Assembly: GCA_016794345.1 (NCBI GenBank)
Contig: JAEUKE010000200.1
Location: forward strand, 99,037 to 163,036
Source of the DNA: Myxococcales bacterium
Lineage (GTDB): Bacteria > Myxococcota_A > Polyangia > Polyangiales > Polyangiaceae
DNA: 64,000 nt
Direction of reading: 5' to 3'
Position 1 is the stretch's first letter, and each line of letters begins with the position of its first letter. This document shows positions 5,710-39,413 of the stretch, piece by piece. The notes under the pieces are model-generated. The model ran no database searches, was not told where the DNA came from, and saw only the letters and a list, made by a program, of their open reading frames with translations. Position numbers and translations under genes: made by a program.

Positions 5710-6376
5710 CTTTCGCGCGGGAGCCGTGCTCGGCCGGGGCCTCGCGATCGCGATGTCGGTCGGGTGCGCCGCGTCGCCGCCAGCGGTCCCCGCCGACGAC
5801 AAGCGGCACCCCGACGGGATCGCGGTCGACCCGCTGGAGACCCCACCATCCGCGACGGACTCGGCCGAAGCTTCGAGCGGCGTCGTCTCGCTCCGGACGC
5901 CGCTGGGCGTCGACGCCGCACGCGCGACGGTCCGCGCGTTCTTCGAGGCGGTCGGGAGCGAAGACGGTGAGGCCCTCATGAAGGTGCTCTCGCTCGACGC
6001 CGTATGGGTAAACCCGATGAGCCGCGCTCGCGAGCCCGCCTACAGCATCTTCTCGCGTCGGTTCGGGCGCCTCGACTACGGTGCCCTGGCTGGCGTGACG
6101 TTCTGGGGTGACGAGCACGTGCTCGAAGGACAGGACGCGGCGCGCGCCTGGGCCGAGCTCGTCCCGCTCGCCTCGTCTCCTTCCGGGGGCGGGCCCATGC
6201 CGCCTGCGCCGCTGGACGCGCTCGAGCCGGGCGATGTCTTCGTCCGGGCGCCGATCAACGTGGGCAAAGGTGGCGCCGGCGCCCTGTTCGGCGCCGAGAT
6301 GGCGCTCGTGCTTCGCCGGGACGGCGATCACTACGTCATCCGCCGCCTCGCGGAGGATTTCGTCCTGCAGCCCTGA
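5696..6376 (+). CDS. Lipoprotein, NTF2/SnoaL-like (tentative)
   Basis: TTG start overlapping the previous stop. Signal peptide with SVGC. ARATVRAFFEAVGSEDGEAL resembles an NTF2-like N-terminal helix. Confidence 0.6.
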   Translation: MRRSSFRAGAVLGRGLAIAMSVGCAASPPAVPADDKRHPDGIAVDPLETPPSATDSAEASSGVVSLRTPLGVDAARATVRAFFEAVGSEDGEALMKVLSLDAVWVNPMSRAREPAYSIFSRRFGRLDYGALAGVTFWGDEHVLEGQDAARAWAELVPLASSPSGGGPMPPAPLDALEPGDVFVRAPINVGKGGAGALFGAEMALVLRRDGDHYVIRRLAEDFVLQP

Positions 6377-6470
6377 GCTCCTCCTCTGGAGCGGAACGCT
6401 CCCTGCTTCCTCTCGTGGGGAGGAGAATTGTTTTCCCCCGCCCCCGCCTCACGGTAAAGGAGACTGTCGC

Positions 6471-7388
6471 ATGAGCCGCCTCAAAGTCGCGTTCGTCGGT
6501 TCGGGGGGCGGCGCGCGCGGGCTCGCTCACCTGGGCGTCCTGAAGGCTTGCGAAGAGACGGGCATCGTCCCGACCATCTTCGTGGGCGCGAGCTCCGGGG
6601 CGCTGGTCTCCGCATCCTACGGTCAAGACGTGCCGCTCGATGTCCTCCTCGACGGCTACCGCCTGCCCTGGCGTCGGCGCCACCACGGGCCGCGCCTGCA
6701 CGCCGGCACGTTCCTCGGTGCGCCGCGCCCGCGGGACTTCCTCGACCCCGGCTACCTCCTCTCGGGTGTCTTCTCGCTCGACAAGCTCGAGCGCCACCTC
6801 GAGCGCTTCTTGCCGGTGAACGATTTCCGGCAGCTCCACAACAGCGTCTTCGTCACCGCGGTCGACGTCGACAGCGGCGAGCGCGTCGTGTTCGGCCCCG
6901 GCTACCGCGAGGACGTGCCCATCAGCCGCGCGGTCGCCGCGAGCTGCGCCGTCCCCGGCCTGTTCCGTCCCGTGAAGATCGGCGACCGCTACTTCCTCGA
7001 CGGGGAGGTCGTCCGCACCCTCTCGGCGGACGTCGCCGTCGCCGCCGGCGCAAACGTCGTCATCATCTCGAACGTGTACCGGCCCGAGCAGCGGCGCGCG
7101 CCCGAGCGAGCGATCGCTCGGCGCGGCGCGCTCGCGGTCATGCGTCAGTCCTTGTCCATCACGCTGATGGAGAAGGAGAAGCGCGGGGTGGATCTCCTGT
7201 CGCGGACGTACCCGAAGGTCGTCTTCCTCGACATCGCCCCCGACATCGGGTCGTTCGGGTACCTCAACCGGTACGCGAGCCGGTCGCTCGTCCTACGCGG
7301 TTATCGCACCGCGCTCCGGGTCCTGACGGAGGCGAAGGAGCGCGGCGTGTTCTCGAGCGTCCTCGCGCCGGATACGCGCCTGAACTGA
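6471..7388 (+). CDS. Patatin-like phospholipase
   Basis: [18 protein letters not shown] oxyanion motif, GASSG nucleophile elbow and DGE catalytic Asp motif. The longer ORF from 6108 was rejected. Confidence 0.9.
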
Positions 7389-7446: not shown

Positions 7447-8847
<1,401 letters not shown>

Positions 8848-8919
8848 CAGGTGCTGAGAGTGCCGCTCTCTCACTCCCCTCTCCTTCGGTGAGGTGGGAG
8901 TCGTCGGCCCGCCTGCCGG

Positions 8920-9411
8920 TCACATGCCGGCGACGATCTTGTACTCGCCCTCGCCGCTCTCGACGAGCTCGAGCCGGTTGTCCTCCACCTTGCGCTTCCA
9001 CGCCTCGCCCGCCGTGGTCGGGATCTTGTAGCTCGCGCTGTAGGTGTAATCGATGAAGATGCGGTCGTTCTCTTTCAGGACGCGCCGGTAGCGGATCTCG
9101 TGGCGGATCGCGAGGGCGTCGAGGAACGCGGTGCCCGTGTCCTCCGCGGTGGAGCCGGTCAGGAAGTCCTTGAACTGCGCGTAGTCCATGTCGTCCGACG
9201 CGTCGGCGTTCCCGCCGTCCTCGTAGTAGTCGGGCGACACGAGCTTGAGGAGCGCGGGCACGTCCCGGCGCTCGACCGCCTTTCGGTACTGCTCGCAGAA
9301 GGTGATGAGCTTCCGGTTCTCTTCGGTGTCCTCCACATCCGTGTTGGGGATGTAGTGCTCCGAGCAAGCAGCGACGAAGAGACAGAGAGAGAGCGCGCGT
9401 GCGGGGGACAT
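8920..9411 (-). CDS. Lipoprotein, NTF2-like/DUF4440-like (tentative)
   Basis: ATG at 9411 gives MSPARALSLCLFVAAC, a signal peptide plus lipobox. KLITFCEQYRKAVERRDVPALLKLVSPDY is NTF2-like. Confidence 0.65.
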   Translation of the reverse strand: MSPARALSLCLFVAACSEHYIPNTDVEDTEENRKLITFCEQYRKAVERRDVPALLKLVSPDYYEDGGNADASDDMDYAQFKDFLTGSTAEDTGTAFLDALAIRHEIRYRRVLKENDRIFIDYTYSASYKIPTTAGEAWKRKVEDNRLELVESGEGEYKIVAGM

Positions 9412-9504
9412 GGGCCTGGAGTCGAGAACCCTCATACCGGCTCGACGATTCCCCACGCTAGGAGCGCGCCGAGCGCTCCGCAAGCTTTGTGCGTTGACAA
9501 ATTG

Positions 9505-11361
9505 TCATGCCTTTTTGTCGGTCAAACGGGCGAGCTCTCGAGCGAGCGCGAGGTGCCCGAACCCGCCGCCGGGCGCGTCGATGTCGATGGCGCAGAGGGC
9601 CCCGGCCGGGTCGGCCTCGACCAGCGCCGCGGCGGCGCCGGTCCCCACGTCCGCCGCGTCGGGGAAACACCGCGTGAGCACGTCGGTCGAGGCGGGCCCG
9701 AGCAGGTCCATCGAGCACGCGACCATTCGTTCGGCGGCGCCGGCGGCGACGATCTCCGCCGCCAGGGCCAGCGCGTCGAGCCCACCCCCGGGGCCGCTGG
9801 CGGTCGCGGCGCTCGGCCCGGTCAGCTCGAAGAGGATCGCGATCTGTCCCGGCATGAGGTTGGGCGAGGTGGGCGGGAACAGCCGCGGCTCCGCCGCGGC
9901 CGGCCCTCTGGCGAGGATCCTCGAATAGAACCGCTCGTTGATGTCGATCGTGGCAAGCGAGTGGCCCAGGACGATGCCCCCGCCCTGGATGCGCTCCTTC
10001 CCCAGCGCCGCCACCGCCGTCGCCGCGAGGAGCGACAGGTCGTCGATCCGCCGGATCTTGTCGGCCTCGATCCCGGTCGCGGCCGCGACGACGGCTGCAT
10101 CCGCTTGCCTCACGGACTCGAGGGCCTTGAGGTAAACGCGCCTGCTCGTCCGCGGCCCGAGGCGTCCCTTCCGCGCAGGGCTCTCGAGCACGAGCGCCGC
10201 GTTCATCCCGCCGAAGGCGGCCGACAGCTTGAGCGCCGCCCCCGATTCGAACGGCTGAGAGATCTCAAGAAGACGCGCCGGGGCGTCGGGATCGATCTCT
10301 CCCTCGCCGGCCGCGGCCGGCGCGACGCCGCGCTCCACCGCGAGCCCGGCGGCGAGCGACTCGATGATGCCGGCCGCGCCGAGCGTGTGGCCGACCTGGG
10401 CCTTCATCGGGTGCACGACCGGCGCGCGATCGTCGAGCGCCGCGCGGATGGCGCGCGACTCCATCGCGTCGTTGTAGGGCGTCGCCGTCGCGTGCGCGCT
10501 CACGAGCCCCACGTCGTCGAGGTCGACCGCGCTGTCCGCGAGGGCGGCCTTGGCCGCGCGAGCGAGCCCGCCGCCCGTCCGATCGGGCGCCGTGATGTGC
10601 ACCGCGTCCGTCGAGGCGCCGAAGCCGCTCACGAAGAACCGCGCCGGCTTACCGCGCTCCTCCCCTTCCCGCACGAGGGCCACGAGCGCAGCGCCTTCCC
10701 CGAGGGCCATGCCGTCGCGGCCGAGGCGAAAGGGAGAGGCGGGCTTCGAGGCCGTCGCGCGCAGCGACTCGAAGCCCGCCGCCACGAAAGGCCCGAGCGC
10801 GTCGTAGCCGCCGGCGATCACGACATCAACCGCTTCGCGGCGGAGCCACAAGAGGCCGACGCCGAGCGCCCACGTGCTCGCGGCGCACGCGTTGACGATC
10901 TGGAGCGACCGGACGATCTGCATGCCGCTCCGCGCGAGCGCGGCGCGCGCGGAGACGAACGGCGCGAAGTAGGTCGACGCCCCGGCCAGCGCCGCGCTCG
11001 GCTCCTCCGCCCGCTGCCGCGCCGCGAAGTAGCGCTCGGCGCTGCGCATGCCGCCGCTCGAGGTGCCGACGACGAGCCCCACGCGCGCCCGCCCTTCGAG
11101 GACGCCGGTGCCTGCGAGATCGGTCAAGAGCCCGCTCACGGCGACGGAGAGCAGCGCGTCCGCGCGGTCATCCGCAGGGGCGAGGTGGTCGTCCGAGACG
11201 CGAGCGCAGAACGGCCGAATGAACCCGTCCGCCTCCATCGTCTCGTCGCGCTCGATGGCGACCGGCGCCGGCACCCCGACGCGTGTCAGATCGATCGCCT
11301 CCTCCCCTTCCCCGAGCGGAGAGACGGCGCCGAAGGCGATGACCGACGCGCGCGCGCTCAT
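9505..11361 (-). CDS. Beta-ketoacyl-ACP synthase with fused C-terminal CLF-like (Cys-less) half
   Basis: KS triad context IVNACAAS, AVHITAP, SAHATATPYND, KAQVGHTLGAAG. C-terminal half has NLMPGQIAILFELTGPSAATASGPGGG with no Cys. ATGA overlap with the upstream gene. Confidence 0.9.
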   Translation of the reverse strand: MSARASVIAFGAVSPLGEGEEAIDLTRVGVPAPVAIERDETMEADGFIRPFCARVSDDHLAPADDRADALLSVAVSGLLTDLAGTGVLEGRARVGLVVGTSSGGMRSAERYFAARQRAEEPSAALAGASTYFAPFVSARAALARSGMQIVRSLQIVNACAASTWALGVGLLWLRREAVDVVIAGGYDALGPFVAAGFESLRATASKPASPFRLGRDGMALGEGAALVALVREGEERGKPARFFVSGFGASTDAVHITAPDRTGGGLARAAKAALADSAVDLDDVGLVSAHATATPYNDAMESRAIRAALDDRAPVVHPMKAQVGHTLGAAGIIESLAAGLAVERGVAPAAAGEGEIDPDAPARLLEISQPFESGAALKLSAAFGGMNAALVLESPARKGRLGPRTSRRVYLKALESVRQADAAVVAAATGIEADKIRRIDDLSLLAATAVAALGKERIQGGGIVLGHSLATIDINERFYSRILARGPAAAEPRLFPPTSPNLMPGQIAILFELTGPSAATASGPGGGLDALALAAEIVAAGAAERMVACSMDLLGPASTDVLTRCFPDAADVGTGAAAALVEADPAGALCAIDIDAPGGGFGHLALARELARLTDKKA

Positions 11362-12074
11362 CCGCCCTCCTTCGGCTCATCGAAGGCCTTCGCGCTCGCC
11401 CCGTCCCGACGGGACTCACACACGGCCACGACCGAGAGGCTCGTCGACTTCTGGCGGTAGCGGACGGTCGCGCAACCGAGGCCGGTCGCCTCCAGCCACT
11501 CTTCGTCCACCACGCCGCGCTCGTCGGACCACCAACGGCGGTGAGCCAGGACGTTTCCGTCATCTTTGAGCGTGGCGGTGGTCACGCGGCCGCCGTCGTC
11601 GAGCAGCACCTCGAGATCGCCGCCGACTCGCCGCGCCGCGAGGAGCCGCCCCCCGAGGGGGCGAAGCATCCACCAGCGGAGGAAGTCGACAGGCAAGCCG
11701 CGTCTCTCCTCCATGGGTGTGCCGGCGTCTCCGACGATCGTGCGGTCGATGGCGGGGACGGCGAAGCGAAACCTCTCGCCCCGCGACCAGAGATCCATGG
11801 CGGTCGTCCCACCTGGCCCGAGCAGGATCATGCGCAGCGAGTCGGGCGCACGAACGGCGACCGCGCCTCGTGCGCTGATGCCGGCCGGGATGTAGGGCGC
11901 CTCGATGGTGAGCGAGATCTTCTCGGTGCGCTCCGCCGGGATGTCGCGTGTGAGCGACGCGAGCCGCGCGCGCGCCTCGACGAACGCGGCAGGGTCGAGC
12001 GCGGGCGGCCCCGCCTTCTCGACCGCACACCCGGCGAGCGCGAAGGAGAGAAGAGCCGCCGCCAGGGTCTTCAT
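11358..12074 (-). CDS. Exported lipoprotein, possibly a LolA/LolB-fold lipid carrier (tentative)
   Basis: MKTLAAALLSFALAGC signal peptide plus lipobox. ATGA overlaps at both ends. The fold assignment rests on pattern memory and operon context only. Confidence 0.7.
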   Translation of the reverse strand: MKTLAAALLSFALAGCAVEKAGPPALDPAAFVEARARLASLTRDIPAERTEKISLTIEAPYIPAGISARGAVAVRAPDSLRMILLGPGGTTAMDLWSRGERFRFAVPAIDRTIVGDAGTPMEERRGLPVDFLRWWMLRPLGGRLLAARRVGGDLEVLLDDGGRVTTATLKDDGNVLAHRRWWSDERGVVDEEWLEATGLGCATVRYRQKSTSLSVVAVCESRRDGASAKAFDEPKEGG

Positions 12075-14251
12075 CTCGCCTCGTCGATGGCCTCGAGCAC
12101 GAACGCGTAGGATCGGTCCGGCGCCTCGCCCAACACGAGGACGGAGCTCGCTCCCCCCTGCGCGACCAGGCTCGCTGCAGCAGCGAGGGCGACCCCGCCG
12201 AGGCCGACGTGGTCGCCCGCGATGGACGCGGTCGTGAGCCGCTCGACCTGGGCCCACGGGGAGCCCTCGAGCAACGCGGCTGGGTTGGTTGCCGGCTCCG
12301 CCACGATCTTCGAGCCCGGTCCGGGTCTGGGCGCACCGGCCGCCGCCTCCTTGCCGCGCACCGAGCGCCAGAACCGAACACGCGCGAGCGGCTTGCGGCC
12401 GCGCTCCGCCGCGCTCGACGCGCGCTCGAGCAGCAGCGCGGAGGCGCCCTCCGAGTGAGACGAGAGGGTGCGCACGCCGAGGAGCGGGGCCAGCACCTTC
12501 TCCGCGAGCTGGCTCACCTCTTCCACGCTCCCCACGACCGCCGATTCACATACGCCGCCGGCGATGAGCTCGAGCCCCGTGGCGGTCGCGCTCTCGGCGG
12601 TCGTGCTCAGATCGGGCGTCGCGAGCGCCGGCCCACGCAGACCCCAGTAGATCGCGGCGTGGCTCACCGGGGACGACGGCACGAGGTTCGGGAAGTCGGC
12701 CGGGCTGGCGAGCGCGGCGCCTTTGTCGATCACGCGCTTCATGAAGCGCATCGAGCCGTCCACGTTGCCGAACGCGGTCCCGCTTATCGCGGCCATCGCC
12801 TCGCGCGACACCGGCGCCCCAGCCACGTCCGCGTCGCGGATCGCGGCGCCGATGACCGCTGCGCTGAGCCGCCCAGCGCGGTCCATTCGACGGGCCTTGC
12901 CCGCGTCGAGCCACGCCGTCGGATCCGTCGGCTCGGCCGGCGCGTCGGCGTCGCCGCGTGTCGGAGCGAGGAGCGAGGCGATCTCGGGCGCGCCCTCGAA
13001 GAGGCGCCCGCGCGCCACGACCGCGACCCCGGACACGACGATGTCCGCTGGGGCGAGCGGCTCGCGCGTGAGGCGGTCCGCCGGGCGCAAGACGACCGCG
13101 CCGCCCGTACCGCCGAAGCCGAACGAGCTCGAGAGGACCGTCATGGGCCGATCCATCTGGCGCGCCTCGAGCACGTGATCGACGTCACACGCCGGATCGG
13201 GGACGGTGAGGCCGACGGTCGGCGGCAAGCGCCGCGTCTCGACGACCTTGGAGGCGATGACGGCCTCGATGGCCCCGGCCGCGCCGAGCGTGTGGCCGAT
13301 CTGGCCCTTGCTCGACGAGACGGGCACACGCACCGGTCCGAAACACGCGCGGATCGCCGCGGCCTCCGACGAGTCGTTCAGGGGCGTCGCCGTCCCGTGG
13401 GCGTTCACGTAGCCGACGTCGCTCGGGGCGAGGTTTGCCACCGACAGCGAGCGCGCCAAGATGGCGCGCGCCGCGCCGCCGGACGGCTCGGGGTTCGTGA
13501 TGTGGTGGGCCTCACCGCCGAGGGCGTACCCCACGAGCTCCGCGACAGCGACCTTCCCGCGTGCCCTCGCCAGATCAGCACGCTCGAGGACGAGGAACGC
13601 CGCTCCCTCACCCAACGTGAGGCCCGCGCGTGTCTTGTCGAAGGGCCTGCACGGGGAAGGGTCGAGGACCGCCAGAGAGCCGAACCCGCTGTAGGTCAGC
13701 CGGCAGAGCGCGTCCGCCCCGCCCGCGAGCACGACGTCCGCCCGGCCCTCGCGGATCCAGGAGGCGCCGAGCGCCAGGGCCGCGGCGCCGCTCGTGCACG
13801 CGCAGCACACCGTGCGGGTGAGGAGGAACCGACCGAGCACCTCCTGGAGGCGGTCCGCCGTGGACGAGAGCGGATGCGTTCGAAGGCGGACCTGGACCGA
13901 CTCCGAGAGATCGGCGTCCGCCAGCTGGGTCAAGAGCTCCTCCGTCTCGAACATGCCGGCCGTGGTGCCGCCGACCACGAGCGCGACCCGATCCGTCTCG
14001 GCGAGGCCGGCGTCCGCGAGCGCCTCGCGCGCGGCCTGCACGGCCATCGCGTCGGTGCGGGCGGCCACTCCGCTCTCCGTCAGCCCGACCACCTCGGCCG
14101 CGAACCGCGACCGCGCCCCAGGCAGCTGGAACAGCGACAGCTCCCGGATCCCGCGCTCACCCGCGTAGAGCCGCGCCATCGACGAGGGGACGTCACCGCC
14201 GAGCGGCGTCACCATCCCGCAGCCGGTGATCCAGACCGCGACGTCGCTCAA
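12071..14251 (-). CDS. Beta-ketoacyl-ACP synthase with fused C-terminal CLF-like (Cys-less) half
   Basis: TVCCACTSG, EAHHITNP, NAHGTATPLND, KGQIGHTLGAAG. C-terminal half has NLVPSSPVSHAAIYWGLRGPALATPDLSTTAES. Proposed TTG start at 14251 overlaps the ACP stop (TTGA). Start is uncertain. Confidence 0.88.
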   Translation of the reverse strand: MSDVAVWITGCGMVTPLGGDVPSSMARLYAGERGIRELSLFQLPGARSRFAAEVVGLTESGVAARTDAMAVQAAREALADAGLAETDRVALVVGGTTAGMFETEELLTQLADADLSESVQVRLRTHPLSSTADRLQEVLGRFLLTRTVCCACTSGAAALALGASWIREGRADVVLAGGADALCRLTYSGFGSLAVLDPSPCRPFDKTRAGLTLGEGAAFLVLERADLARARGKVAVAELVGYALGGEAHHITNPEPSGGAARAILARSLSVANLAPSDVGYVNAHGTATPLNDSSEAAAIRACFGPVRVPVSSSKGQIGHTLGAAGAIEAVIASKVVETRRLPPTVGLTVPDPACDVDHVLEARQMDRPMTVLSSSFGFGGTGGAVVLRPADRLTREPLAPADIVVSGVAVVARGRLFEGAPEIASLLAPTRGDADAPAEPTDPTAWLDAGKARRMDRAGRLSAAVIGAAIRDADVAGAPVSREAMAAISGTAFGNVDGSMRFMKRVIDKGAALASPADFPNLVPSSPVSHAAIYWGLRGPALATPDLSTTAESATATGLELIAGGVCESAVVGSVEEVSQLAEKVLAPLLGVRTLSSHSEGASALLLERASSAAERGRKPLARVRFWRSVRGKEAAAGAPRPGPGSKIVAEPATNPAALLEGSPWAQVERLTTASIAGDHVGLGGVALAAAASLVAQGGASSVLVLGEAPDRSYAFVLEAIDEAR

Positions 14252-14520
14252 CCTGCCCCCGACCCCTTCTCTTTCGCGATGTGCGCGACGAGAGCGTCGA
14301 CCGACGCGAAGATGCTCCGCGCCTCCTGCCCTTCGGGGACCTTCACCCCGAAGTGCTCCTCCACGCACATGGCGAGCTGCAGGGCATCGAGCGAGTCGAG
14401 GCCGAGCCCTTCGCCGAAGAGGGGCGCGGCGTCATCGATGTCCTCGGGCTTCTTACCCACGAGGTTGAGCTCCTTGATCATGAGCTCTTTGAGCGATGTG
14501 CGGATCTCGTTCGCGTTCAT
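14248..14520 (-). CDS. Acyl carrier protein
   Basis: 90 aa with GLGLDSLDALQL, which contains the phosphopantetheine-attachment Ser. Confidence 0.92.
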   Translation of the reverse strand: MNANEIRTSLKELMIKELNLVGKKPEDIDDAAPLFGEGLGLDSLDALQLAMCVEEHFGVKVPEGQEARSIFASVDALVAHIAKEKGSGAG

Positions 14521-14639
14521 GCGCGCTCCTGCGCCGCCGGGCGCGAGTTTGACGAAAGCCCGATCACGCCGCTTCTACCACCTGCGGTTTCGGTTGTCTT
14601 CAGGCACGAAATCAACGCGCTTGGGGCTATCCTCGGTCC

Positions 14640-15431
14640 ATGGCCCTCGTCGACTACGAGACTTCATCTGGCGTCGCCCTCCTCACGCTCAACGACCCTC
14701 CGTTCAATGGGTACACGTACGAGATGATGAAGGACCTCGACGCGGCGATCCTCGAAGCGAGGTTCGACACGGACGTGGAGGTCATCGTGATCACCGGGCA
14801 CGGAGACAAGTTCTTCTGCTCCGGCGCGAACATCAACATGCTCAAAGAGGCGGACGAGCGGTTCAAATACTACTTCTGCCTCCACGCGAACGAGACCCTG
14901 CTCCGGCTCGAGCACACGCCCAAGCTCTGCATCGCCGCGATCCACGGGCACTGCGTCGGCGGCGGCCTCGAGATCGCCCTGGCCTGCGATCTGCGCGTCG
15001 CGCGGAAGGGCGCGGGCAAGATGGGCTTGCCGGAGGTCGCGCTCGGCGTGCTCCCCGGCACGGGTGGGACGCAGCGGCTGGCCCGGCTCGTCGGGCGCTC
15101 GAAGGCGCTGCAGCTGATGGTGGAGGGCTCCACCTTCGATTTCGAGCAGGGCCATTCCATTGGTCTTGTTCACGAGGTCTGGGAGACCGCCACGGCGGAT
15201 CAATTCAAGAGCCGCGCCATGGAGTACGCGCACCGCTTCACCAAGCCAGGAAAGGCGAGCCTGGCGGTGGGCGCGATCAAGCGCGCCGTCGCGACCGGCC
15301 TCGAGGTAGGCCTCGAGCAAGGCCTCGCGCTCGAACGTGAGCTCCAGGCGGAGCTCTTCGCCTCGGGCGACGCGAAGGAAGGGCTCGCCGCCTACACCGA
15401 CAAGCGCAAGCCGAGGTTCTCCGGACGCTGA
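14640..15431 (+). CDS. Enoyl-CoA hydratase/isomerase (crotonase) family
   Basis: FCSGANI, GHCVGGGLEIALACDLRVA, GVLPGTGGTQRL. Confidence 0.93.
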   Translation: MALVDYETSSGVALLTLNDPPFNGYTYEMMKDLDAAILEARFDTDVEVIVITGHGDKFFCSGANINMLKEADERFKYYFCLHANETLLRLEHTPKLCIAAIHGHCVGGGLEIALACDLRVARKGAGKMGLPEVALGVLPGTGGTQRLARLVGRSKALQLMVEGSTFDFEQGHSIGLVHEVWETATADQFKSRAMEYAHRFTKPGKASLAVGAIKRAVATGLEVGLEQGLALERELQAELFASGDAKEGLAAYTDKRKPRFSGR

Positions 15432-15526: not shown

Positions 15527-15922
15527 ATGGAAGGCGAGAAGCGGTACGAGTCGTTCGAGGAGTTCTGGCCGTTTTACGTCCGCGAGCACTCGAACAAATG
15601 GACGCGGCGGTTCCATTTCGTCGGCACGACCGCGGCGGTCTCCCTCCTCGGGACCGCGCTCATCAAGCGCCGGCCGGCGCTCATCCCGCTCGCGCTCGTC
15701 GCGGGGTACGGGCCCGCGTGGTTCAGCCATTTCTTCATCGAGAAGAACCGCCCGGCGACGTTCAAATACCCGCTCTGGTCCTTGCTCGCGGACTTCAAGA
15801 TGTGGGGCAAGATGGCGCGCGGCAAGATGGACCGCGAGGTCGCGCGCGCCACGGCGCCCGCCCGCGAGGCGGCCGCCCCGTCGAACGGCGTCTCACACCA
15901 TCACGACGCGCCGGCCGCCTGA
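15527..15922 (+). CDS. DUF962 (Mpo1-like) membrane protein
   Basis: YESFEEFWPFYVREHSNKWTRRFHFVGT is the family N-terminus. ATG at 15527 has GGAG upstream. A TTG at 15509 is also possible. Confidence 0.85.
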   Translation: MEGEKRYESFEEFWPFYVREHSNKWTRRFHFVGTTAAVSLLGTALIKRRPALIPLALVAGYGPAWFSHFFIEKNRPATFKYPLWSLLADFKMWGKMARGKMDREVARATAPAREAAAPSNGVSHHHDAPAA

Positions 15923-16614
15923 TCGCCCGACCGAATCATCACCGTCTCGAAGGCGACCCCACTCGCGATCTTCGAGACGGTGGCGCGCAGCTCCACCTCG
16001 GGGCTCACCTGTCGCAGCGCGAGGCCACCGCTCGCCAGTCGCTGGAACCCTGCGGACGTGAGCCCCCCGAGCTCCGCGAGATCGAGGCCGCTCAGCTCCT
16101 CGCGCTCCGTGACGACCGCGATCCGCGCGAGATCCTCGAGGTCCATCGCGTGCTCGCGCACCGCCGAGCCGCCCGCGCCCTCGCCGATCCGGCCGCGCAG
16201 CTTCCGGTACACCTCGGAGAACGTGAACGGGCAGCTGCGCGGCGCCGCCACCTTCGCGTCCACTCGAACGGTGTCGAGCTCGAACCCCTGCGGCAGCCGC
16301 GTCGTGGCGCGCCAGACGCGCACCACCGTGCGGTCGCGCTCGTAGACGTCGCGCCCCTCCTTCGCCTCGAACTCCAGGTGACGGAAGGCCTTCCCGAGCC
16401 GCTCGCCGAAGCTCGCCCGGAGCGAGCCCAGCCCCCCGCCGTCCTCGGATTGGGCGAAGTCCACCGTCATCGTGCGCAGCCCGCGGCCGTCGACGAAGAC
16501 GTCCCAGCGATCCTCGAGCCGAACGAGGAGCGCGTCATCCGGAGAGAGCGGCGCGATCACGCGCGCGAGCTCCGGCAAGAGATGTTTCATCGTCGCTTCG
16601 CTCTGCTCATCCAT
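15901..16614 (-). CDS. Hypothetical protein
   Basis: Non-repetitive composition with balanced D/E/K/F/W, unlike the junk frames. No motif recognised. Alternative ATG at 16590. Confidence 0.55.
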   Translation of the reverse strand: MDEQSEATMKHLLPELARVIAPLSPDDALLVRLEDRWDVFVDGRGLRTMTVDFAQSEDGGGLGSLRASFGERLGKAFRHLEFEAKEGRDVYERDRTVVRVWRATTRLPQGFELDTVRVDAKVAAPRSCPFTFSEVYRKLRGRIGEGAGGSAVREHAMDLEDLARIAVVTEREELSGLDLAELGGLTSAGFQRLASGGLALRQVSPEVELRATVSKIASGVAFETVMIRSGDQAAGAS

Positions 16615-16958
16615 GGGCGCGCCGGATGATAGCTCGCGCGGTCACCGCCGCGAGGCCGACGGCGCGCCCGGCTGAGGTCGGCGTCCGGGCGCGAGCTCGA
16701 GGGGCTGGGCAGCCTCTCGCGGTCCGGAGACTGGGCTCGCCCGAGGGGCGCTGCGGAGCCCGCCTTCGATCACGGCCGGCGGAAGCAGCGGGAGCGCCTC
16801 GAGCAGCGCCACCGGGGCGAGGAAGCGGCGGAGGCAGGCGTCGGTCTCGTGAGCTCGACATGGGCGCTCGCCGAGCAAGCGGCGCGCCCGAGGGCGACCG
16901 CGTGGATCGGAAGGGCTCGCGCGGGCACAGCGGGGCGTTTTCAACGGGTGCCCATTTG

Positions 16959-16974
16959 GGGCACCGCGCTCGCG
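16959..16974 (+). promoter_or_regulatory. Candidate sigma-54 promoter (GGGCAC-N5-TCGC) overlapping a 7-bp-stem palindrome
   Basis: GG at 16960-61 and GC at 16972-73 have the canonical 12-nt offset. Two mismatches to TGGCAC-N5-TTGC. Lies 75 nt upstream of the 17048 start. Confidence 0.3.
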
Positions 16975-17047
16975 GCGCTCGCGCGCTCGCGACGTGGCGA
17001 GCGGACCTTCCGAGAATCGCCTCCGACAAGTAGGCTGAGCATCTCCG

Positions 17048-17800
17048 GTGCGCTCTCCGCTCGTCGTCGTCGCTCTCGCCCTGAGCCTGAACGTGATCCC
17101 CACGCGCGTCGCGCTCGCGGGACCGTCGGACGAGGCGAAGGCGGGCCAGCTCTTCGACAAAGCCGAGGCGGAGTACCAGGCCGGCCACTTCCGTGAGGCG
17201 ATCGATCTCCTGCTCGAGGCGCAGCGGCTCGCGCCGGACGCGGTCCTCCATTACAACCTGGCCCGCGCCTACGAAGGGCTCGGGGAGCTCGACCCTGCGC
17301 TCGCCTCGTACCGCGCCTACCTGGAGGCGGACCCGAAGACGAAGGACCGCGGCGCCGTGGAGGCGCGAATCAAGACGCTCGAGCAGCTCAAGGCCGATCG
17401 CTCGGCGCCCAAGCCAGCGCCGCCGGGGCCTCCCGCGGACAGGCCCCCTCCCCCACCCGCAGAGCCGGACAGCGCGAGCCCGGTGCCGTGGGTCATCGCC
17501 GGGATCGGTGCGCTCGGCCTCGGTGCGGCGGGCGTGCTCGGCGGGCTCTCGCTCTCGAAGAGCAACGAAGCCGAGGAGCCTGCCACGAGCGGAGAGGACG
17601 CCGCCCGCCTCACGGACGAGGCGCAGACCTTCGCCACCGGGGCCAACGTGACGTTCGGCGTGGCGGGCGCGATCCTCGCGGCCGGCCTCGTCTGGGGCAT
17701 CGTGGACGTCGCCACGCTCGGCTCCGATCCGGACAGCCCGACCGCGTCCCTTCGAGTCGAGCTCTGGGGCCCGGGCGCCCGCATCACGTCCCGGTTCTGA
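17048..17800 (+). CDS. Secreted TPR-like protein with Pro-rich linker and a C-terminal TM segment
   Basis: GTG start and signal peptide. AEYQAGHFREAIDLL..YNLARAYEGLGELDPALASYRAYL is a TPR pair. PKPAPPGPPADRPPPPP linker followed by a hydrophobic helix. Confidence 0.75.
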   Translation: MRSPLVVVALALSLNVIPTRVALAGPSDEAKAGQLFDKAEAEYQAGHFREAIDLLLEAQRLAPDAVLHYNLARAYEGLGELDPALASYRAYLEADPKTKDRGAVEARIKTLEQLKADRSAPKPAPPGPPADRPPPPPAEPDSASPVPWVIAGIGALGLGAAGVLGGLSLSKSNEAEEPATSGEDAARLTDEAQTFATGANVTFGVAGAILAAGLVWGIVDVATLGSDPDSPTASLRVELWGPGARITSRF

Positions 17801-17807
17801 GCCCGGA

Positions 17808-19241
17808 TCAGCCGCGCCGCTTGCCCGTGCGCAGGATCTGGAAATACCGCCGCGCGATGCCGGACGCCTCCGCCGCTTTGGCGACATTTCCGTCATGCTC
17901 TGCCAGGACCGCGGCGATGTAGCGCGCCTCGAAGCTCTCGATGACCCGGAGTCGCGCGAGGGGGAGCGGGAGCTTCTGCGCGATGACCGTCTCGACGATG
18001 TCGCCGCCGCGCTCCGAGACGCGCGCGACCTCGCCTCCCTCGTCTTCACCCCGGACCCCATCGCCGAGCTCTCCGAGCGCGATCCAGCGCGCGACTGCGT
18101 TTCGCAGCTGCCGCACGTTCCCCGGCCACGACGCGCGCTCCCACGTGGCGAGCAGATCCGCCGGCGGACCCGGCGGCGCGCCGCCCAGCTCGCGCCAGAA
18201 ATGCCGCGCGAGCACGGCGACGTCCCCTTTTCGCTTTCGGAGCGGGGGAAGCTCGACGCGCCCTACCGCGAGCCGATGGTAGAGGTCGTCCCGGAATCGG
18301 CCCTCTTGCACCGCGCGGTCGAGATCGCGCCGGGTGGCGGCGAGGAGGCGCACGTCGATCTGGATCGGCTCGGCGCCGCCCACGCGCCGCACCTCGCGAC
18401 GCTCGATGGCTCGCAAGAGCTTGGGCTGGAGCGAGAGGTCGAGATCGCCGATCTCGTCGATGAGGAGCGTCCCTCCGGAGGCCTGCTCGAAGAAGCCCTT
18501 CCGCGTCGCCGTCGCGCCGGTGAACGCGCCGCGCTCGTGTCCGAAGAGCTCCGCCTCCATCAAGCTGGCCGGGACGGCGGTGCAGTCGAACACCACGAAC
18601 GGCCCGGCGGCGCGCGCGCTCGCGTCGTGGATCGACTCGGCCAGCACCTCTTTCCCGGTTCCGGTCTCCCCCTCGATGACGACGGGCACGTCGGAGGCGG
18701 CGAGCTTGCGGAACAGCGGATAGAGCCGCGACAGCTCCCGGCTGGCGCCCACCACCTTGCAGAAGCCTTCTTCGACGGCCGGCGTCGCCGGAAGAGCGGA
18801 CGCGCTGCGCGAGAGCCGGAGCGTGGTCGCGCCCAGACGGATCGACTCGTCCCCTCGGAGGTAGGCGCACGCGATCGAGACCCCGTCGACGAAGGTCCCG
18901 TTCGTCGAGTCGAGGTCCGTCAAGACGAGGCGGCTCTCGCTCGCCTCGATCGAGAGATGGCGGCGCGAGACGTGACGATCGGTCAGCCGCAGGTCACACG
19001 ACGGGCTCTGCCCGACGAGCACGGGGCCGGCCTGCCCCGGCTGCAGCTCGAGCGCTGCCCCGCGGTCCGGGCCCTCGGCGACCGACAACCTCCAGCCGGC
19101 CGGACGCTCTTCGGGGCGCCTCGACGGCTGTATCGCGGTGGCGCCGCCTTCGAGATCCGCGAGGTCGTGCTCGTCCACGCACGAGACTCTACCACTGCCC
19201 GGGCGGGCCCCGAGATCAGTTGAATTTTCTGTACCGTCCAC
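17808..19241 (-). CDS. FHA-domain sigma-54-dependent transcriptional activator (bEBP)
   Basis: FHA: GQSPSCDLRLTDRHVSRRHLSI...TDLDSTNGTFVDG. AAA+: VVIEGETGTGKE, GAFTGA, LLIDEIGD. C-terminal HTH NVAKAAEASGIARRYF. GTG at 19241, with an alternative GTG at 19178. Confidence 0.9.
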   Translation of the reverse strand: MDGTENSTDLGARPGSGRVSCVDEHDLADLEGGATAIQPSRRPEERPAGWRLSVAEGPDRGAALELQPGQAGPVLVGQSPSCDLRLTDRHVSRRHLSIEASESRLVLTDLDSTNGTFVDGVSIACAYLRGDESIRLGATTLRLSRSASALPATPAVEEGFCKVVGASRELSRLYPLFRKLAASDVPVVIEGETGTGKEVLAESIHDASARAAGPFVVFDCTAVPASLMEAELFGHERGAFTGATATRKGFFEQASGGTLLIDEIGDLDLSLQPKLLRAIERREVRRVGGAEPIQIDVRLLAATRRDLDRAVQEGRFRDDLYHRLAVGRVELPPLRKRKGDVAVLARHFWRELGGAPPGPPADLLATWERASWPGNVRQLRNAVARWIALGELGDGVRGEDEGGEVARVSERGGDIVETVIAQKLPLPLARLRVIESFEARYIAAVLAEHDGNVAKAAEASGIARRYFQILRTGKRRG

Positions 19242-22704: not shown

Positions 22705-24174
22705 TCAGGTCAGGTTCGGGAGCGGCCCCTGGTGGACGACGTGGTTGCTCCCGAAATGGGTGTCGGTACCGCCGAAGGCCTGGAGCATCGACGTGAAGAG
22801 GTTGTGGGTGGACTCGTTCGTCGCGTATTCGAGCGTGTCCGGGTTCTGCGCCGCAAACGTGTTGTAGTCGATGTGGCGCCCGGTCTTGAAATAGTGGCCC
22901 GCGCTCCCGGCCAGGAGGACCAGCGCGCCGGCCGACACGTGGCTGGCGGGCTCGCTGAACTCGCTCGTCCAGAACATCAGGCTGTTGTCGAGCATGGTGC
23001 TCCCGCCTTCCATGAAGGCGGGATCGTCGAGGCCCTCGGCGATCTGCTGGAACAGGCTCATTCGCCAGCGACGGTTGTCGAGCATCTCGGCGACCCACGG
23101 CTGCGCGAGGTCCGGGTAGGCGCCGGTCGGGCCGACGTCACGCGCGTAGTGCCCGAGCGAATGGCCGATGCCGAACCCCGAATCGACCTGGAGGCCGGCC
23201 GCGGTCCACGGCGTGAGGATGTCGGCGATCTCGAGGTTGGCGACGTTCGTCAGCCCACAACGGAGCGCGGCCAGGATGATCTTCGCGTGGAGCGGCCCGA
23301 CGATGTCCCCGGACGCCGACCCGTCGGCGGAGATGCCCGTCGGTGGCTCGCACAGGACCGGCGCCGCGAGCAGCTCCTTGTGGAGGTCGTTCAGGTGATC
23401 GAGGTGAGCGTCGATCTTGTGGATGTCCGACTGGCTCACGACGCCGCGGAACTGGCTGTAGCTGTCCATGACGCCTTCGACCACGAGGCGGCGCTTGAGC
23501 TTCAGGTGCTCGTAGGCCGGGTCGGGCTGGTCTGGGTTCACACCTTCGAAGATGGTGTTGAACGCGGCGACGGGGCTCTCCTCCCCATACACGCGCTGGT
23601 TGGCGCCCGCGTAATACGGAGACCCGTATTGGTGGCCGGTCACGGTGAGGTGGATGCGCTTGAACTTCACCGGGTACTTCTCGGCGAGCCGCTCGGCGAG
23701 CACGTGGTCGATCGACGGGCCGAGCGACTCCGACTCTCCCTCGTCCGCCGCCGTCGCGGCGTCCGCCGCGGTGAGCGCGGTGACGTTCGAGATACCGTGC
23801 CCGCCGCTGCCGTATTGGGCTTGCTGCCCGGCGGCCATGTTGTCCACCCCGCGCAGGACGAGCAGCTTCGACTTCACCGCCTCGAGGTCCTGCATGATCG
23901 GCCCGAGGACGAGATCCTCCCCGGGGTCGGCCGGACGCCAGTAGTCGGTGGCGAGATACTCGGAGTTGCCGTCGTGGAACCCGGAGTGGCTCTGACTGGT
24001 GAGCGTCCCGCCGTGCTCGAACACGGTGATGAACCGTCGAGCGCTCTCTCCGGCGGACCACGCCTTGCCATGCGTGAGCTCGAGCAGCGGCAGACCGAGC
24101 AGCGCGCCGCCCGCCCGGCGGAGGAACGCGCGACGCCGGGAGTTCTTCAGCGCTTTGACAAGCTCGCGGCTCAT
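22705..24174 (-). CDS. DUF1552-family protein with Tat-like signal
   Basis: MSRELVKALKNSRRRAFLRRAGGALLG is a twin-Arg leader. Its partnership with the upstream DUF1592-type gene is typical. ATGA overlap at 24171-24174. Confidence 0.85.
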   Translation of the reverse strand: MSRELVKALKNSRRRAFLRRAGGALLGLPLLELTHGKAWSAGESARRFITVFEHGGTLTSQSHSGFHDGNSEYLATDYWRPADPGEDLVLGPIMQDLEAVKSKLLVLRGVDNMAAGQQAQYGSGGHGISNVTALTAADAATAADEGESESLGPSIDHVLAERLAEKYPVKFKRIHLTVTGHQYGSPYYAGANQRVYGEESPVAAFNTIFEGVNPDQPDPAYEHLKLKRRLVVEGVMDSYSQFRGVVSQSDIHKIDAHLDHLNDLHKELLAAPVLCEPPTGISADGSASGDIVGPLHAKIILAALRCGLTNVANLEIADILTPWTAAGLQVDSGFGIGHSLGHYARDVGPTGAYPDLAQPWVAEMLDNRRWRMSLFQQIAEGLDDPAFMEGGSTMLDNSLMFWTSEFSEPASHVSAGALVLLAGSAGHYFKTGRHIDYNTFAAQNPDTLEYATNESTHNLFTSMLQAFGGTDTHFGSNHVVHQGPLPNLT

Positions 24175-25847
24175 TGTCCGACCTCCGACACGTTGATGTA
24201 ACGGAACGCATCGCTCGCGATGATCGCGAGCACCAAGTCGCGCATGCTGCCTCCGTCGGCGAACTGCGTCTGGATCGTCTCGAGCGAGCAGGTGTCGAGG
24301 GCTCCGAGGGCCTCGCCGATCGCCTCCCGGTACCAGCGATCCGCGAAACACGCGCGCACCCTCTCGCTGGAAGAGAGCCGCTGCGAGAGCTCCACCGCGC
24401 CCACGACCGGCCCGTCGACGTCGCCGGTGGTGGCGATGGTGCCGCTGTTGTCGACCGGCAAGCCGGTCGTCACCTCCTCGGTCTGCCACTTGCCGATCGA
24501 GTCGTAGGTCTCGAACGTGAAGCCGACGGGGTTGATGATGTTGTGGCAGGACGCGCACTGGGGATCCGTGGTGGTCCGGAGCGTTACCTCCTCGCGCACG
24601 GTGAGCTGCTTGCCGTCGACGACGCCCCCCTCCACCTTGACGTTGTTGGCGTTCGCCGGCGGCTCACCGAGCTCGCTGCACAACATCTCCTCGACCACCC
24701 AGACCCCGCGACGGATGGGCGCGGTCACCTTCGCCGTCGACAGGACCGTCAGGAACGCGGCCCTGGTCAGGATGCCGGCGCGCTGGGCGGGGTCGAGCTC
24801 GACCCACTGCCAGGTCGACTCGTCGGTCGGGCCGGGCACGCCGTAGAGCGCCGCGAGCGGGCCGTTCACGTAGGCGCGGTTGGAGGTCAGGAGATCCGCG
24901 AGCGAGCCGTTGTCCTCGAAGAACACGCGCCGCACGAACGCCTCGGTCTCGGCGCGCATGGCGGCGCGCAGCGCCGGATCGAACTCGGGGTAGAGCGCCG
25001 CGTCCTTGTCGGCCTCCTCGAGCGCGTGGTGGAGGATCCCGCCGTCGAGCTGAAGCCAGTGCGACACGAACCGCTGCACGGCTCGCTCGGCGCGCGGGTC
25101 GTCGAGCAAGCGCGCGGCCTGGGTCGCGAGCCCGTCGGCCTCGTCGAGCTCACCGCTCTCCGCGGACGCGAAGAGCGCGTCGTCGGGCATCGTGTTCCAC
25201 AGGAGGTACGAGAGGCGCGACGCGACCTCGTAGCTCTTGAGCTTCCGCGTCGTCTCCGAGGCGTCGCCTTCGCCGGCCTCGAACAGGTAGACGAAGGCGG
25301 GGTCCTGCAGGACGACCTGGAAGAGCATCTCCATCGACTCCTGGAAGGTCATCCCGGCGCCGCGCGCGTTCGCGTACACAGCCTTGAGGCTCACGCGCTC
25401 GGCGTCGGTCACGGGTCTTCGGAACGCGCGGGTCACGAAGCCGGAGAGGAAGTCGTCGACACAGACGTCGCCGGCGTCGGAGGCGATGTCACAAGGGAAG
25501 ACCGGCTTGGTCCACGAGCCGCTCCGGGAGATCGCGCGCTCCGCGCCGTCACGCAGGGCGCGCACCTCGCTCTCCGTGATGATCTCGCCCCCTTCCCCGA
25601 GGTCGCCGGTGAACCCCTCGTCGCCGAGGAGCTCGCGCATCGTGTTTTCGTATTGCTCCGGGCTCAACCGGCGCAGCGGGCGCGCGGCGCCGTGGATGCC
25701 GACCTCCTCACACGACTGCGGGCCGGTCCCCGGGCCGTCTTCGTCCGAAGCGCCCCCACCGATGTCGCCGATGCAGCCGACCGAGGTCACCGCTGCCAGG
25801 GCTACCACCGAGGCCAACCGGAGCGCGTCGAAGCGTCGCGTCGTCAT
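24171..25847 (-). CDS. DUF1592/DUF1588/DUF1595-type lipoprotein with CxxCH motif
   Basis: Signal peptide with SVGC. PQCASCHNIINPVGFTFE (CxxCH) lies in the DUF1588-like C-terminal part. ATG at 25847, with 25865 also possible. Confidence 0.85.
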   Translation of the reverse strand: MTTRRFDALRLASVVALAAVTSVGCIGDIGGGASDEDGPGTGPQSCEEVGIHGAARPLRRLSPEQYENTMRELLGDEGFTGDLGEGGEIITESEVRALRDGAERAISRSGSWTKPVFPCDIASDAGDVCVDDFLSGFVTRAFRRPVTDAERVSLKAVYANARGAGMTFQESMEMLFQVVLQDPAFVYLFEAGEGDASETTRKLKSYEVASRLSYLLWNTMPDDALFASAESGELDEADGLATQAARLLDDPRAERAVQRFVSHWLQLDGGILHHALEEADKDAALYPEFDPALRAAMRAETEAFVRRVFFEDNGSLADLLTSNRAYVNGPLAALYGVPGPTDESTWQWVELDPAQRAGILTRAAFLTVLSTAKVTAPIRRGVWVVEEMLCSELGEPPANANNVKVEGGVVDGKQLTVREEVTLRTTTDPQCASCHNIINPVGFTFETYDSIGKWQTEEVTTGLPVDNSGTIATTGDVDGPVVGAVELSQRLSSSERVRACFADRWYREAIGEALGALDTCSLETIQTQFADGGSMRDLVLAIIASDAFRYINVSEVGQ

Positions 25848-25953
25848 GGCGCGCACGCCTTGCACCCCTTGTGCCAGCCGGAGACGGCCTCTATCTCCGC
25901 ACGAATCCGCCCTGGGAGCAGCGGGGGGTGATCAGGTTGATCCGACCCGAGGA

Positions 25954-31470: not shown

Positions 31471-31539
31471 GGGTCTTTGGTATCACAATCTCCCGAGCTT
31501 GCTTGGACCCGGTCTTAGCGGTACGAGCCTCTTTCTCAA

Positions 31540-33957
<2,418 letters not shown>

Positions 33958-37490: not shown

Positions 37491-37563
37491 GAGATACCTC
37501 GGCCCTTGAGCCCAGGCATCTACGCAAAGCCCCTACCTTTTCTTCCTCCGCCCGACAGCGCCC

Positions 37564-39348: not shown

Positions 39349-39413
39349 GGTGCGAGGCTACCAAACCACGGTGAGAGGCGCGAGCCTGCCTTGCCGCTCG
39401 GACGCCGGTCTGA

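Follow-up and report, generated by a model that had tools for sequence, protein, structure and literature searches.

A conserved Polyangiales cassette with two single-chain ketosynthases, a dedicated acyl carrier protein and a predicted Lol-fold lipoprotein: a candidate lipid-building module

Described systems closest to the cassette

Several described systems resemble, each in part, a four-gene cassette lying in a 64,000-nt stretch of DNA from a Myxococcales bacterium of the family Polyangiaceae (assembly GCA_016794345.1, contig JAEUKE010000200.1, positions 99,037 to 163,036), which is called the window below and whose positions are used for all numbering. All genes of the cassette are on the minus strand, from 14520 down to 9505, and they encode a dedicated acyl carrier protein (ACP), a ketosynthase (KS) fused to a second thiolase-type half (KS1), a lipoprotein and another fused ketosynthase (KS2). 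The systems to be compared are the aryl polyene (APE) clusters, the PfaC didomain, the ladderane-cluster system of anammox bacteria, and the ketosynthase loci of mycobacteria and rhizobia.

The APE systems of E. coli CFT073, A. baumannii and Xenorhabdus have in common with the cassette an ApeE-type ACP, two ketosynthases (ApeO and ApeR) and, apparently, a chain-length factor (CLF) cut to about one thiolase half, a form represented by ApeC (PMC8358021) in the former and by the C-terminal half of KS2 in the latter. A LolB-like gene directly upstream of a KS gene is also common to both, and so is the outer membrane as the inferred destination; in E. coli, apeO is immediately preceded by apeN, which is LolB-like, and ApeL and ApeN have been proposed as lipid carriers to the outer membrane (PMC8253772). 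However, the CLF of APE systems is separate from the KS and ApeR has no CLF at all, whereas in the cassette each KS has a CLF-like half fused in cis. The cassette is furthermore without the ApeH ligase, ketoreductase, dehydratase, thioesterase, lysophospholipid acyltransferase (LPLAT), glycosyltransferase and resistance-nodulation-division (RND) pump of APE clusters, and its lipoprotein has no DUF3261 match. Finally, APE clusters are patchily distributed, while the cassette belongs to the core genome of a single order, where it is conserved.

PfaC provides the closest parallel to the fusion itself. Its didomain (PDB 6riw) holds an active KS and an inactive CLF on one polypeptide and forms an intramolecular pseudo-dimer, as is predicted for KS1. 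The CLF of PfaC is of full size and belongs to a multidomain megasynthase that also has AT and DH domains and works with PfaA, PfaB and PfaD, whereas the didomains of the cassette stand alone, are trimmed (726 and 618 aa) and duplicated, and come with a discrete ACP. The idea that KS1 and KS2 are fragments of a PfaC-type megasynthase was rejected, because the proteins end after the CLF half, are found at full length in complete genomes and have no Pfa-type genes nearby. That is to say, a KS-CLF fused in cis is not unprecedented. The first-pass annotation, made from the sequence of the window, had described the locus as sharing the core logic of APE-type systems without matching them. This holds in so far as the ACP type, a half-size CLF-like part and the Lol-like neighbour are common to both and the stripped content and duplicated fusions are unlike APE, and both proteins do carry a triad-less thiolase half, but the cis fusion, given there as part of the mismatch, is known from PfaC.

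In anammox bacteria, the amxFabF2/amxFabFmut heterodimer, which is KS/CLF-like and has its own ACP, has been reported to decarboxylate malonyl-ACP, to prime itself in this way and to work in membrane-lipid synthesis (bioRxiv 10.64898/2026.05.19.726425). This system shares with the cassette a FabF-derived KS, a dedicated ACP and a FabF-like partner that has no triad, and its pathway, as is proposed for the cassette, leads to a membrane lipid and not to an antibiotic; unlike the cassette, its partners are separate and of full length, its genes belong to a large cluster with radical SAM enzymes, and Lol-like lipoproteins are absent from it. The fabD-acpM-kasA-kasB operon of M. tuberculosis contains an ACP and two KSs, with the reductive enzymes encoded elsewhere, and like the rhizobial acpXL-fabF1XL/fabF2XL locus it uses a dedicated ACP and two elongating KSs to make special envelope lipids from chains derived from fatty-acid synthase (FAS). 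The combination of a dedicated ACP with two KSs, most reductive enzymes lying elsewhere, is shared with the cassette, but their KSs are of the ~410-aa homodimer type, with no fused CLF and no interleaved lipoprotein genes.

The two fused ketosynthases

KS1 (12071–14251; 726 aa, TTG start) consists of a KS at residues 1 to ~395 followed by a trimmed CLF-like thiolase domain at residues ~400–726. KS2 (9505–11361; 618 aa) consists of a KS at residues 1 to ~400 followed by a half-size CLF-like domain at residues ~405–618, which amounts to one thiolase half. Both proteins are paralogous single-chain enzymes made of a KS and an inactive thiolase-type partner domain. They are 31% identical over 461 aa, and since this similarity spans the KS and runs into the second half, the fused architecture should be older than the duplication that gave rise to KS1 and KS2.

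Both proteins match the Pfam domains ketoacyl-synt and Ketoacyl-synt_C over their N-terminal ~390 aa. Cys152, His250, His285 and Lys315 of KS1 are invariant in 40 homologues, and the corresponding Cys159, His255, His290 and Lys320 of KS2 in 27 of 27 orthologues, deep-branching ones included, so that the intact N-terminal KS that had been read in each protein stands. The motifs quoted for the two proteins are likewise all present (CCACTSG, EAHHITNP and NAHGTATP in KS1; NACAAS, AVHITAP and SAHATATP in KS2; GPALATPDLSTTAES and GPSAATASGPGGG in the C-terminal halves). Although the Cys-His-His triad and the Lys are in place, an identity of KS1 or KS2 as an ordinary FabF was rejected, because their scores (324.5 bits for KS1 and 192.9 for KS2) lie far under the cutoff of the FabF equivalog TIGR03150 (493.75 bits). 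The best NCBIfam model is FabF for KS1 and PRK09185 for KS2, and with 290 and 230 bits the two KSs are both below the PRK09185 cutoff of 407 bits as well. Among PDB chains, 9s5h chain B is the best sequence match of the N-terminal half of KS1, and both C-terminal halves have chain C as one of their best matches; these chains are probably the anammox FabF2/FabFmut complex.

The C-terminal halves are of the thiolase type, as had first been proposed. Searched as single sequences, each contains a second match to the N-terminal ketoacyl-synt domain (PF00109), with E-values of 1.7e-7 in KS1 and 6.4e-7 in KS2, and family profiles of the halves match the FabFs of the PDB at 1.9e-26 (KS1) and 5.6e-16 (KS2). 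The same profiles also match CLF-type partner chains of heterodimeric systems (9s5h_C, 6kxd_B, 6smo_C and 1tqy_B), and in hhalign the two halves match one another as homologues with a probability of 98.6%. When the C-terminal half of KS1 was placed on its own N-terminal half by global profile alignment, Ser or a gap was found at the catalytic Cys, and both His residues and the Lys were missing; the structural GH helix alone of the aligned KS motifs is retained. In the KS2 orthologues, the Cys-equivalent column of the C-terminal half is occupied by P, L, R, V or F. Therefore, on alignment the triad is absent from the C-terminal half of KS1 and the Cys is replaced in that of KS2.

The two halves differ in extent. 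That of KS1 (~320 aa) comprises, by the secondary structure of its model, a first thiolase half and a trimmed second half, and much of it is invariant across 40 sequences. That of KS2 (~210 aa) comprises the first thiolase half only, its profile matching FabF residues ~70–200. PF13723 (Ketoacyl-synt_2), the ApeC-type family, is matched by 17 of 25 KS2 C-terminal halves, with a best E-value of 3.3e-7; the C-half profiles of KS1 and KS2 found none of the ApeC chains in the PDB.

The AlphaFold model of KS1, built with 40 homologues, has a mean predicted local distance difference test score (pLDDT) of 89.3 and a predicted template modelling score (pTM) of 0.93. Foldseek ranks 6riw first, the PfaC didomain with KS and CLF in one chain, with a query-normalised template modelling score (TM) of 0.80 over the full length and 890 alignment columns, at a sequence identity of just 16%, whereas the subunits of FabF homodimers cover half of the model, with a TM of 0.50. 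The model thus supports a PfaC-like packing in which the C-terminal half of KS1 would form an intramolecular KS:CLF pseudo-dimer with the KS, as the first-pass annotation had suggested looking for.

Carrier protein, lipoproteins and genomic setting

The ACP gene (14248–14520) encodes 90 aa (GLGLDSLDALQL), and its product matches Pfam PF00550 at 4.5e-10 and passes NCBIfam PRK09184 with 75.5 bits against a cutoff of 70, while the AcpM model gives 18.7 bits only. Its best PDB sequence match is 9LS6, the ApeE of the A. baumannii aryl polyene cluster, at 1.3e-12; the next match is at 7e-7, and ordinary AcpPs match at ~1e-6. The spacing F-G-x-G-x-G-x-D-S ahead of the phosphopantetheine Ser is common to the ACP and ApeE, and the ACP orthologues are 59–86% identical. 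By these sequence comparisons, it is a dedicated ACP of the ApeE type and not of the AcpP type.

The lipoprotein between KS1 and KS2 (11358–12074; 238 aa, MKTLAAALLSFALAGC) has a signal peptide and the lipobox LAGC, the Cys of which is invariant in 36 of 36 homologues. Its family counts 411 members, all named 'hypothetical'. Sequence searches of the protein found no match in Pfam, NCBIfam or the PDB, no Pfam match was found for the 36 members at E ≤ 1, and the 36-member profile found none in the PDB at E ≤ 10; PF03548, PF03550, DUF3261 and DUF4292 were among the families without a match. The structure model, with a pLDDT of 90.3, gave 47 Foldseek matches at E ≤ 1e-3, nearly all of them LolA, LolB or members of the LolA superfamily (probability 1.0, best E-value 2.5e-7, moderate TM of 0.45–0.57). 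The protein most likely has an open beta-barrel fold of the LolA/LolB type, is lipid-anchored like LolB, and is a putative lipid carrier. The LolA-like carrier proposed at the outset is thus upheld in its predicted fold but not in sequence membership of the Lol families. With LolA and LolB it shares that predicted fold, and LolB is likewise a lipoprotein; unlike them, it has its gene between two ketosynthase genes with overlapping codons, no detectable sequence relationship joins it to either, and its family was found in Polyangiales only.

The coordinates and sizes of the four open reading frames (ORFs), as first given, were confirmed. The window has a G+C content of ~70%, and the G+C content at third codon positions (GC3) of the four ORFs is 0.83–0.92, the strong bias of genuine genes. 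Chance ORFs are ruled out by this bias together with full-length orthologues in dozens of genomes. On the coding strand, the junctions read TTGA between ACP and KS1, ATGA between KS1 and the lipoprotein, and ATGA between the lipoprotein and KS2, and AAGGAGG stands immediately 5′ of the KS2 start. All three start/stop overlaps described by the first-pass annotation are therefore present in the window, but conservation holds for two of them: across 54 related loci, counted with a heuristic that takes the start codon closest to the upstream stop, the 4-nt overlap is found between KS1 and the lipoprotein in 50 and between the lipoprotein and KS2 in 49, whereas the ACP/KS1 overlap occurs in just 3, and Sorangium has a 25-nt gap there. 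Despite the start-picking heuristic, a frame relation kept across lineages with many indels points to selection on the coupling of KS1, lipoprotein and KS2, and by their conserved 4-nt overlaps these three genes appear tightly linked in translation. A stoichiometric coupling of the translation of the cassette may follow from this arrangement. No promoter or terminator was found in a scan of 8700–14800.

In the window, the ACP/KS1 overlap depends on the TTG start at 14251. The NCBI record P0001 gives a 714-aa KS1 product from an internal ATG, which costs the protein its first 12 residues and with them a part of VWITGCGMVTPLG, a conserved strand at the N-terminus (14215–14251, minus strand). This start is likely a mis-call, and the 726-aa product from the TTG seems to fit the homologues of ~715–735 aa better. 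An exact-sequence look-up gave no match for KS1 (726 aa) or P0001, and KS2 matched a 4.3-kb Logan contig alone. In the source records, the proteins of the cassette are named only 'beta-ketoacyl-ACP synthase family protein' or 'hypothetical protein'.

More than 120 full-length KS1 homologues of 700–770 aa were found, the named ones being from Sorangium, Chondromyces, Polyangium, Minicystis, Byssovorax and uncultured Polyangiaceae. At representative level, a search with the C-terminal half of KS1 recovered 267 clusters at E ≤ 1e-10, many of them of ~700–760 aa with the match at residues ~400–730, and the named ones were Polyangiaceae. A scan with the lipoprotein profile over one genome per GTDB species yielded 61 loci, labelled as Polyangiaceae, Polyangiales or unclassified Myxococcales/Deltaproteobacteria except for one, in a metagenome-assembled genome (MAG) labelled Bifidobacteriaceae, which is presumably mis-binned. 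None of the homologues found in these searches with KS1 and the lipoprotein came from Myxococcus. The order ACP-KS1-lipoprotein-KS2 is complete in ~50 of the 61, and most also have a small lipoprotein gene. Among the loci recovered, the cassette is chromosomal, syntenic and limited to Polyangiales. In Sorangium cellulosum So ce56, where it lies at 8.31–8.33 Mb of AM746676, its neighbours (MoxR, MATCAP, patatin, GATase, AsnRS and PDZ) are those of the window, and a chromosomal neighbourhood common to Sorangium and uncultured Polyangiaceae indicates that the cassette is passed on vertically with the core chromosome. This distribution fits a lineage-wide component of the cell and not a mobile secondary-metabolite cluster.

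In three deep-branching loci (L055, L056 and L060), a lipoprotein-like gene and KS2 form an isolated two-gene unit. In two of these, the LolB-fold domain lies inside a longer protein of 385–420 aa (7491–8753 in L055, 7596–8753 in L060), the KS2-type fusion (569–575 aa) follows directly, and no ACP or KS1 was found within 8 kb of the pair; in L060 a protein with an FGE-sulfatase domain comes after the KS2-type fusion.

The enzymes that a complete assembly line would contain were looked for around the cassette. In 30 further ORFs, spread between 1 and ~60 kb of the window, Pfam scans detected no acyltransferase, ketoreductase, dehydratase, enoyl reductase, thioesterase or acyl-activating enzyme, which agrees, for these ORFs and the flanks in So ce56, with the first report of a locus without acyltransferase, ketoreductase, dehydratase, enoyl reductase, thioesterase or loading enzyme. 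No domains of the APE set ApeH, ketoreductase ApeQ and dehydratases ApeI/ApeP were seen in the window ORFs (1 to ~60 kb), the So ce56 flanks and the Pfam-marked flanks of relatives, and the APE export set (ApeD LPLAT, ApeJ glycosyltransferase, ApeK thioesterase, ApeM RND) is absent from the scanned window ORFs and the So ce56 flanks. Membership in the APE cluster family was rejected: starter ligase, ketoreductase, dehydratases, thioesterase, acyltransferases and RND pump are absent from the genes scanned, and the KSs are under the family cutoff. Regions called 'arylpolyene' by antiSMASH have been reported in the Minicystis rosea genome (PMC8436480), and these might include the present locus. 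Literature searches on KS-CLF fusions in myxobacteria, on KS-CLF didomains that stand alone and on arylpolyenes of Sorangium found no treatment of the cassette, and none that would make it part of a characterised cluster with a known product.

Two further genes flank the cassette, both at the positions first described. The small lipoprotein gene (8920–9435, minus strand; 171 aa from the first ATG) starts 70 or 93 nt downstream of KS2, depending on the Met chosen, and encodes a signal peptide and the lipobox VAAC (LFVAAC). Its lipobox Cys followed by YIPNTDVED is found in 25 of 25 orthologues, with a mean column identity of 65%. Its likeness to NTF2 is weak: SnoaL_2 is matched in 19 of 25 and SnoaL_3 in 14 of 25, all under cutoff, DUF4440 is also sub-threshold, the profile found nothing but noise in the PDB, and part of the source records name the protein 'nuclear transport factor 2 family' or 'ketosteroid isomerase-like'. 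It is probably NTF2/SnoaL-like by these sequence hints. In most loci its gene is directly downstream of KS2, and in the variant without KS2 it is downstream of KS1.

On the other side, a crotonase of the enoyl-CoA hydratase/isomerase family (14640–15431, plus strand; PF00378, E 6.9e-51) is divergent to the cassette, with 119 nt between its start and that of the ACP gene. The crotonase gene adjoins the cassette in divergent orientation in ~45 of 61 loci, with 69–89% identity, and lies ~8 kb off in L065. Its status as a proven member of the cassette was rejected, since NCBIfam gives generic enoyl-CoA hydratase models only, all under cutoff, and the linkage varies; it is a possible partner. A patatin-like phospholipase gene (window 6108–7388, plus strand; 15804–16718 in the So ce56 locus, L002), 65–85% identical across Polyangiaceae, is found no more than a few kb from the cassette in ~35 of 61 loci, in many cases convergent with the gene of the small lipoprotein; it may act with the cassette in lipid handling, or it may be no more than a syntenic neighbour.

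Farther along the window, a gene for a MATCAP (microtubule-associated tyrosine carboxypeptidase) protein (30076–31482, minus strand; PF08014, E 4e-126) is divergent to that of a MoxR-type AAA_3 ATPase (31519–32553, plus strand), a pair that is also beside the cassette in So ce56. There, crotonase and MATCAP are ~1 kb apart, while ~15 kb separates the crotonase from the pair in the window. This stretch includes two ORFs on the minus strand (15901–16614 and 16607–18061) with coding-type GC3 and no Pfam or NCBIfam match, the first of which has a relative in one related locus (L005), and it also holds a sigma-54 activator with FHA, a Ser/Thr kinase with PEGA and a protein with an FGE-sulfatase domain. 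A large protein with a lysyl-oxidase domain (35085–37532, minus strand; PF01186) adjoins one with an IgGFc_binding domain (37564–39357, minus strand; PF17517, E 1.5e-79), both domains being better known from animals. DUF1592, DUF1588, DUF1595 and DUF1585 ('PSD') occur in one protein (24171–25931, minus strand), a set typical of Planctomycetes-type proteins, and a B12-binding radical SAM protein with DUF4070 is encoded at 50507–52000 on the plus strand.

Proposed function and rival explanations

The cassette may well be, with the case about evenly balanced, a chromosomal, Polyangiales-specific minimal type II module for building a lipid, with parts related to those of APE systems, which borrows fatty-acid-synthase enzymes and passes the ACP-bound lipid to Lol-like envelope carriers. 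In such a pathway, housekeeping FabD would load malonyl on the dedicated ACP. The starter could be a FAS-derived acyl group, or acetyl formed by KS-catalysed decarboxylation of malonyl, for which the anammox FabF2/FabFmut pair offers a precedent. KS1 and then KS2 would extend the acyl chain on the ACP in succession, and their different chain-length windows might be set by the unequal CLF-like halves (~320 and ~210 aa). For the processing of the beta-carbon, FabG and FabZ would be borrowed, perhaps also FabI, and the neighbouring crotonase might contribute. Once complete, the lipid would be transferred to an anchor, exported, taken up by the LolB-like and NTF2-like lipoproteins and placed in the outer membrane, a delivery step that is suggested by analogy to apeN-apeO of the E. 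coli APE cluster. The product class, an envelope lipid or polyene, is what these parts would suggest, and a saturated (very-long-chain) and a polyenic (pigment) chain cannot be told apart from the sequence, because the KS domains are, in the PDB comparison, about equally far from FabF, ApeO, Iga11 and the actinorhodin KS.

A more specific proposal, tentative and in our view rather doubtful in its full form, is that Polyangiales make and deliver a lineage-specific outer-membrane lipid by an undescribed route, in which two single-chain KS-CLF enzymes would work on a private ACP, and the LolB-fold lipoprotein, co-translated with the synthases, together with the NTF2-like lipoprotein would serve as dedicated periplasmic carrier and inserter for the free lipid, and not for lipoproteins.

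Several observations weigh against a lipid-building module of this kind. The same even distance of the KS domains from their PDB relatives indicates no product class. The CLF role is assigned from the predicted fold and the missing triad, and many invariant polar residues in the C-terminal half of KS1, such as D547, E553, E577, E601, R617 and W666 among its invariant positions, could indicate another function. The lipoprotein has no sequence link to any Lol family, and its TM-scores are only ~0.5. One locus (L065) has the order ACP-KS1-KS2-small protein, in which KS1 adjoins KS2 without the lipoprotein, and another lineage has ACP-KS1-small protein, without lipoprotein or KS2; together with the isolated pairs of the deep-branching loci, these variants indicate that the parts of the cassette are separable. 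In addition, no ketoreductase, dehydratase, enoyl reductase, acyltransferase of either the loading or the transfer type, thioesterase or inner-membrane exporter was found in the window or in the DNA flanking the cassette in relatives (up to 10 kb), and because no thioesterase, acyltransferase or exporter is near the cassette, the release from the ACP and the export across the inner membrane are left unexplained.

Other explanations share part of this evidence. The product could be a pigment, in that the KS-CLF proteins would build a conjugated polyene on the ApeE-like ACP with FabG and FabZ or the crotonase and no enoyl reductase, as in a reduced aryl polyene or flexirubin-like pathway, and the Lol-like proteins would place the pigment lipid in the outer membrane; this is a special case of the lipid-building module with a defined product class. 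The ApeE-type ACP above the PRK09184 cutoff, the half-size ApeC-like CLF of KS2 with its PF13723 matches, the LolB-like gene adjoining a KS gene as apeN adjoins apeO, and PRK09185 as the best NCBIfam model of KS2 all agree with it. However, no aryl-starter ligase (ApeH) is encoded at the locus, no dedicated ketoreductase/dehydratase pair, thioesterase, acyltransferase, glycosyltransferase or RND exporter was found in the scanned genes, both KSs are under the PRK09185 cutoff, and the C-half profiles miss the ApeC chains in the PDB; moreover, the chain would be reduced if housekeeping FabI gains access. A pigment is accordingly judged unlikely. The combination of KS, CLF and ACP without reductive enzymes is also, in form, a 'minimal polyketide synthase' (PKS), which would make an unreduced poly-beta-ketone to be cyclised by the SnoaL-like protein, as the weak SnoaL-family matches of the small lipoprotein and the presence of the actinorhodin KS and CLF among the PDB matches would allow. 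Such an aromatic type II PKS is very improbable and was rejected: neither CLF half has the Gln at the Cys position (Ser, a gap or variable residues in KS1; P, L, R, V or F in KS2), both halves are truncated, no aromatase/cyclase or tailoring genes are present, and conservation in the core genome is atypical of such clusters. In 25 of 25 orthologues the sole cyclase-like protein carries the signal and lipobox of a lipoprotein, and so it would be exported and could not act on a chain bound to a cytoplasmic ACP.

It is also conceivable, though improbable, that the adjacency of the genes is partly incidental, the KS fusions being lineage-specific housekeeping enzymes of fatty-acid elongation and the LolB-fold lipoprotein the protein that receives lipoproteins in general at the outer membrane of Polyangiales, with no relation to what the KSs make. 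A syntenic, vertically inherited cassette resembles a housekeeping locus, the best NCBIfam model of KS1 is FabF, L065 has no lipoprotein between KS1 and KS2, and in many non-gamma/beta-proteobacteria LolB is not known to have a recognisable sequence homologue. But the 4-nt overlaps on both sides of the lipoprotein gene are kept in ~50 of the 54 loci, the lipoprotein and KS2 stay together as a pair when apart from ACP and KS1, the ACP is of the ApeE and not the AcpP type, the KSs (324 and 193 bits) are far under the FabF cutoff (494 bits), and the lipoprotein family is confined to Polyangiales as far as found. The lipid-building module tied to Lol-like carriers is the reading followed below.

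Polyangiales such as Sorangium and Chondromyces have been intensively mined for natural products, yet the cassette, conserved across the order in the loci recovered, is unannotated, and both families merit profile models of their own. For enzymology, a compact stand-alone KS-CLF pseudo-dimer in two sizes may become a tractable model for the way in which a CLF sets chain length. For lipid transport, a pair of lipid-building enzymes genetically tied to a predicted Lol-fold carrier may open a route to studying the path of lipids other than lipopolysaccharide (LPS) to the outer membrane. The title of a 2011 paper by Keck et al., cited in PMC11324152, calls So ce56 LPS-lacking. The envelope of Polyangiales such as Sorangium is unusual, and the cassette is a candidate envelope-lipid module there.

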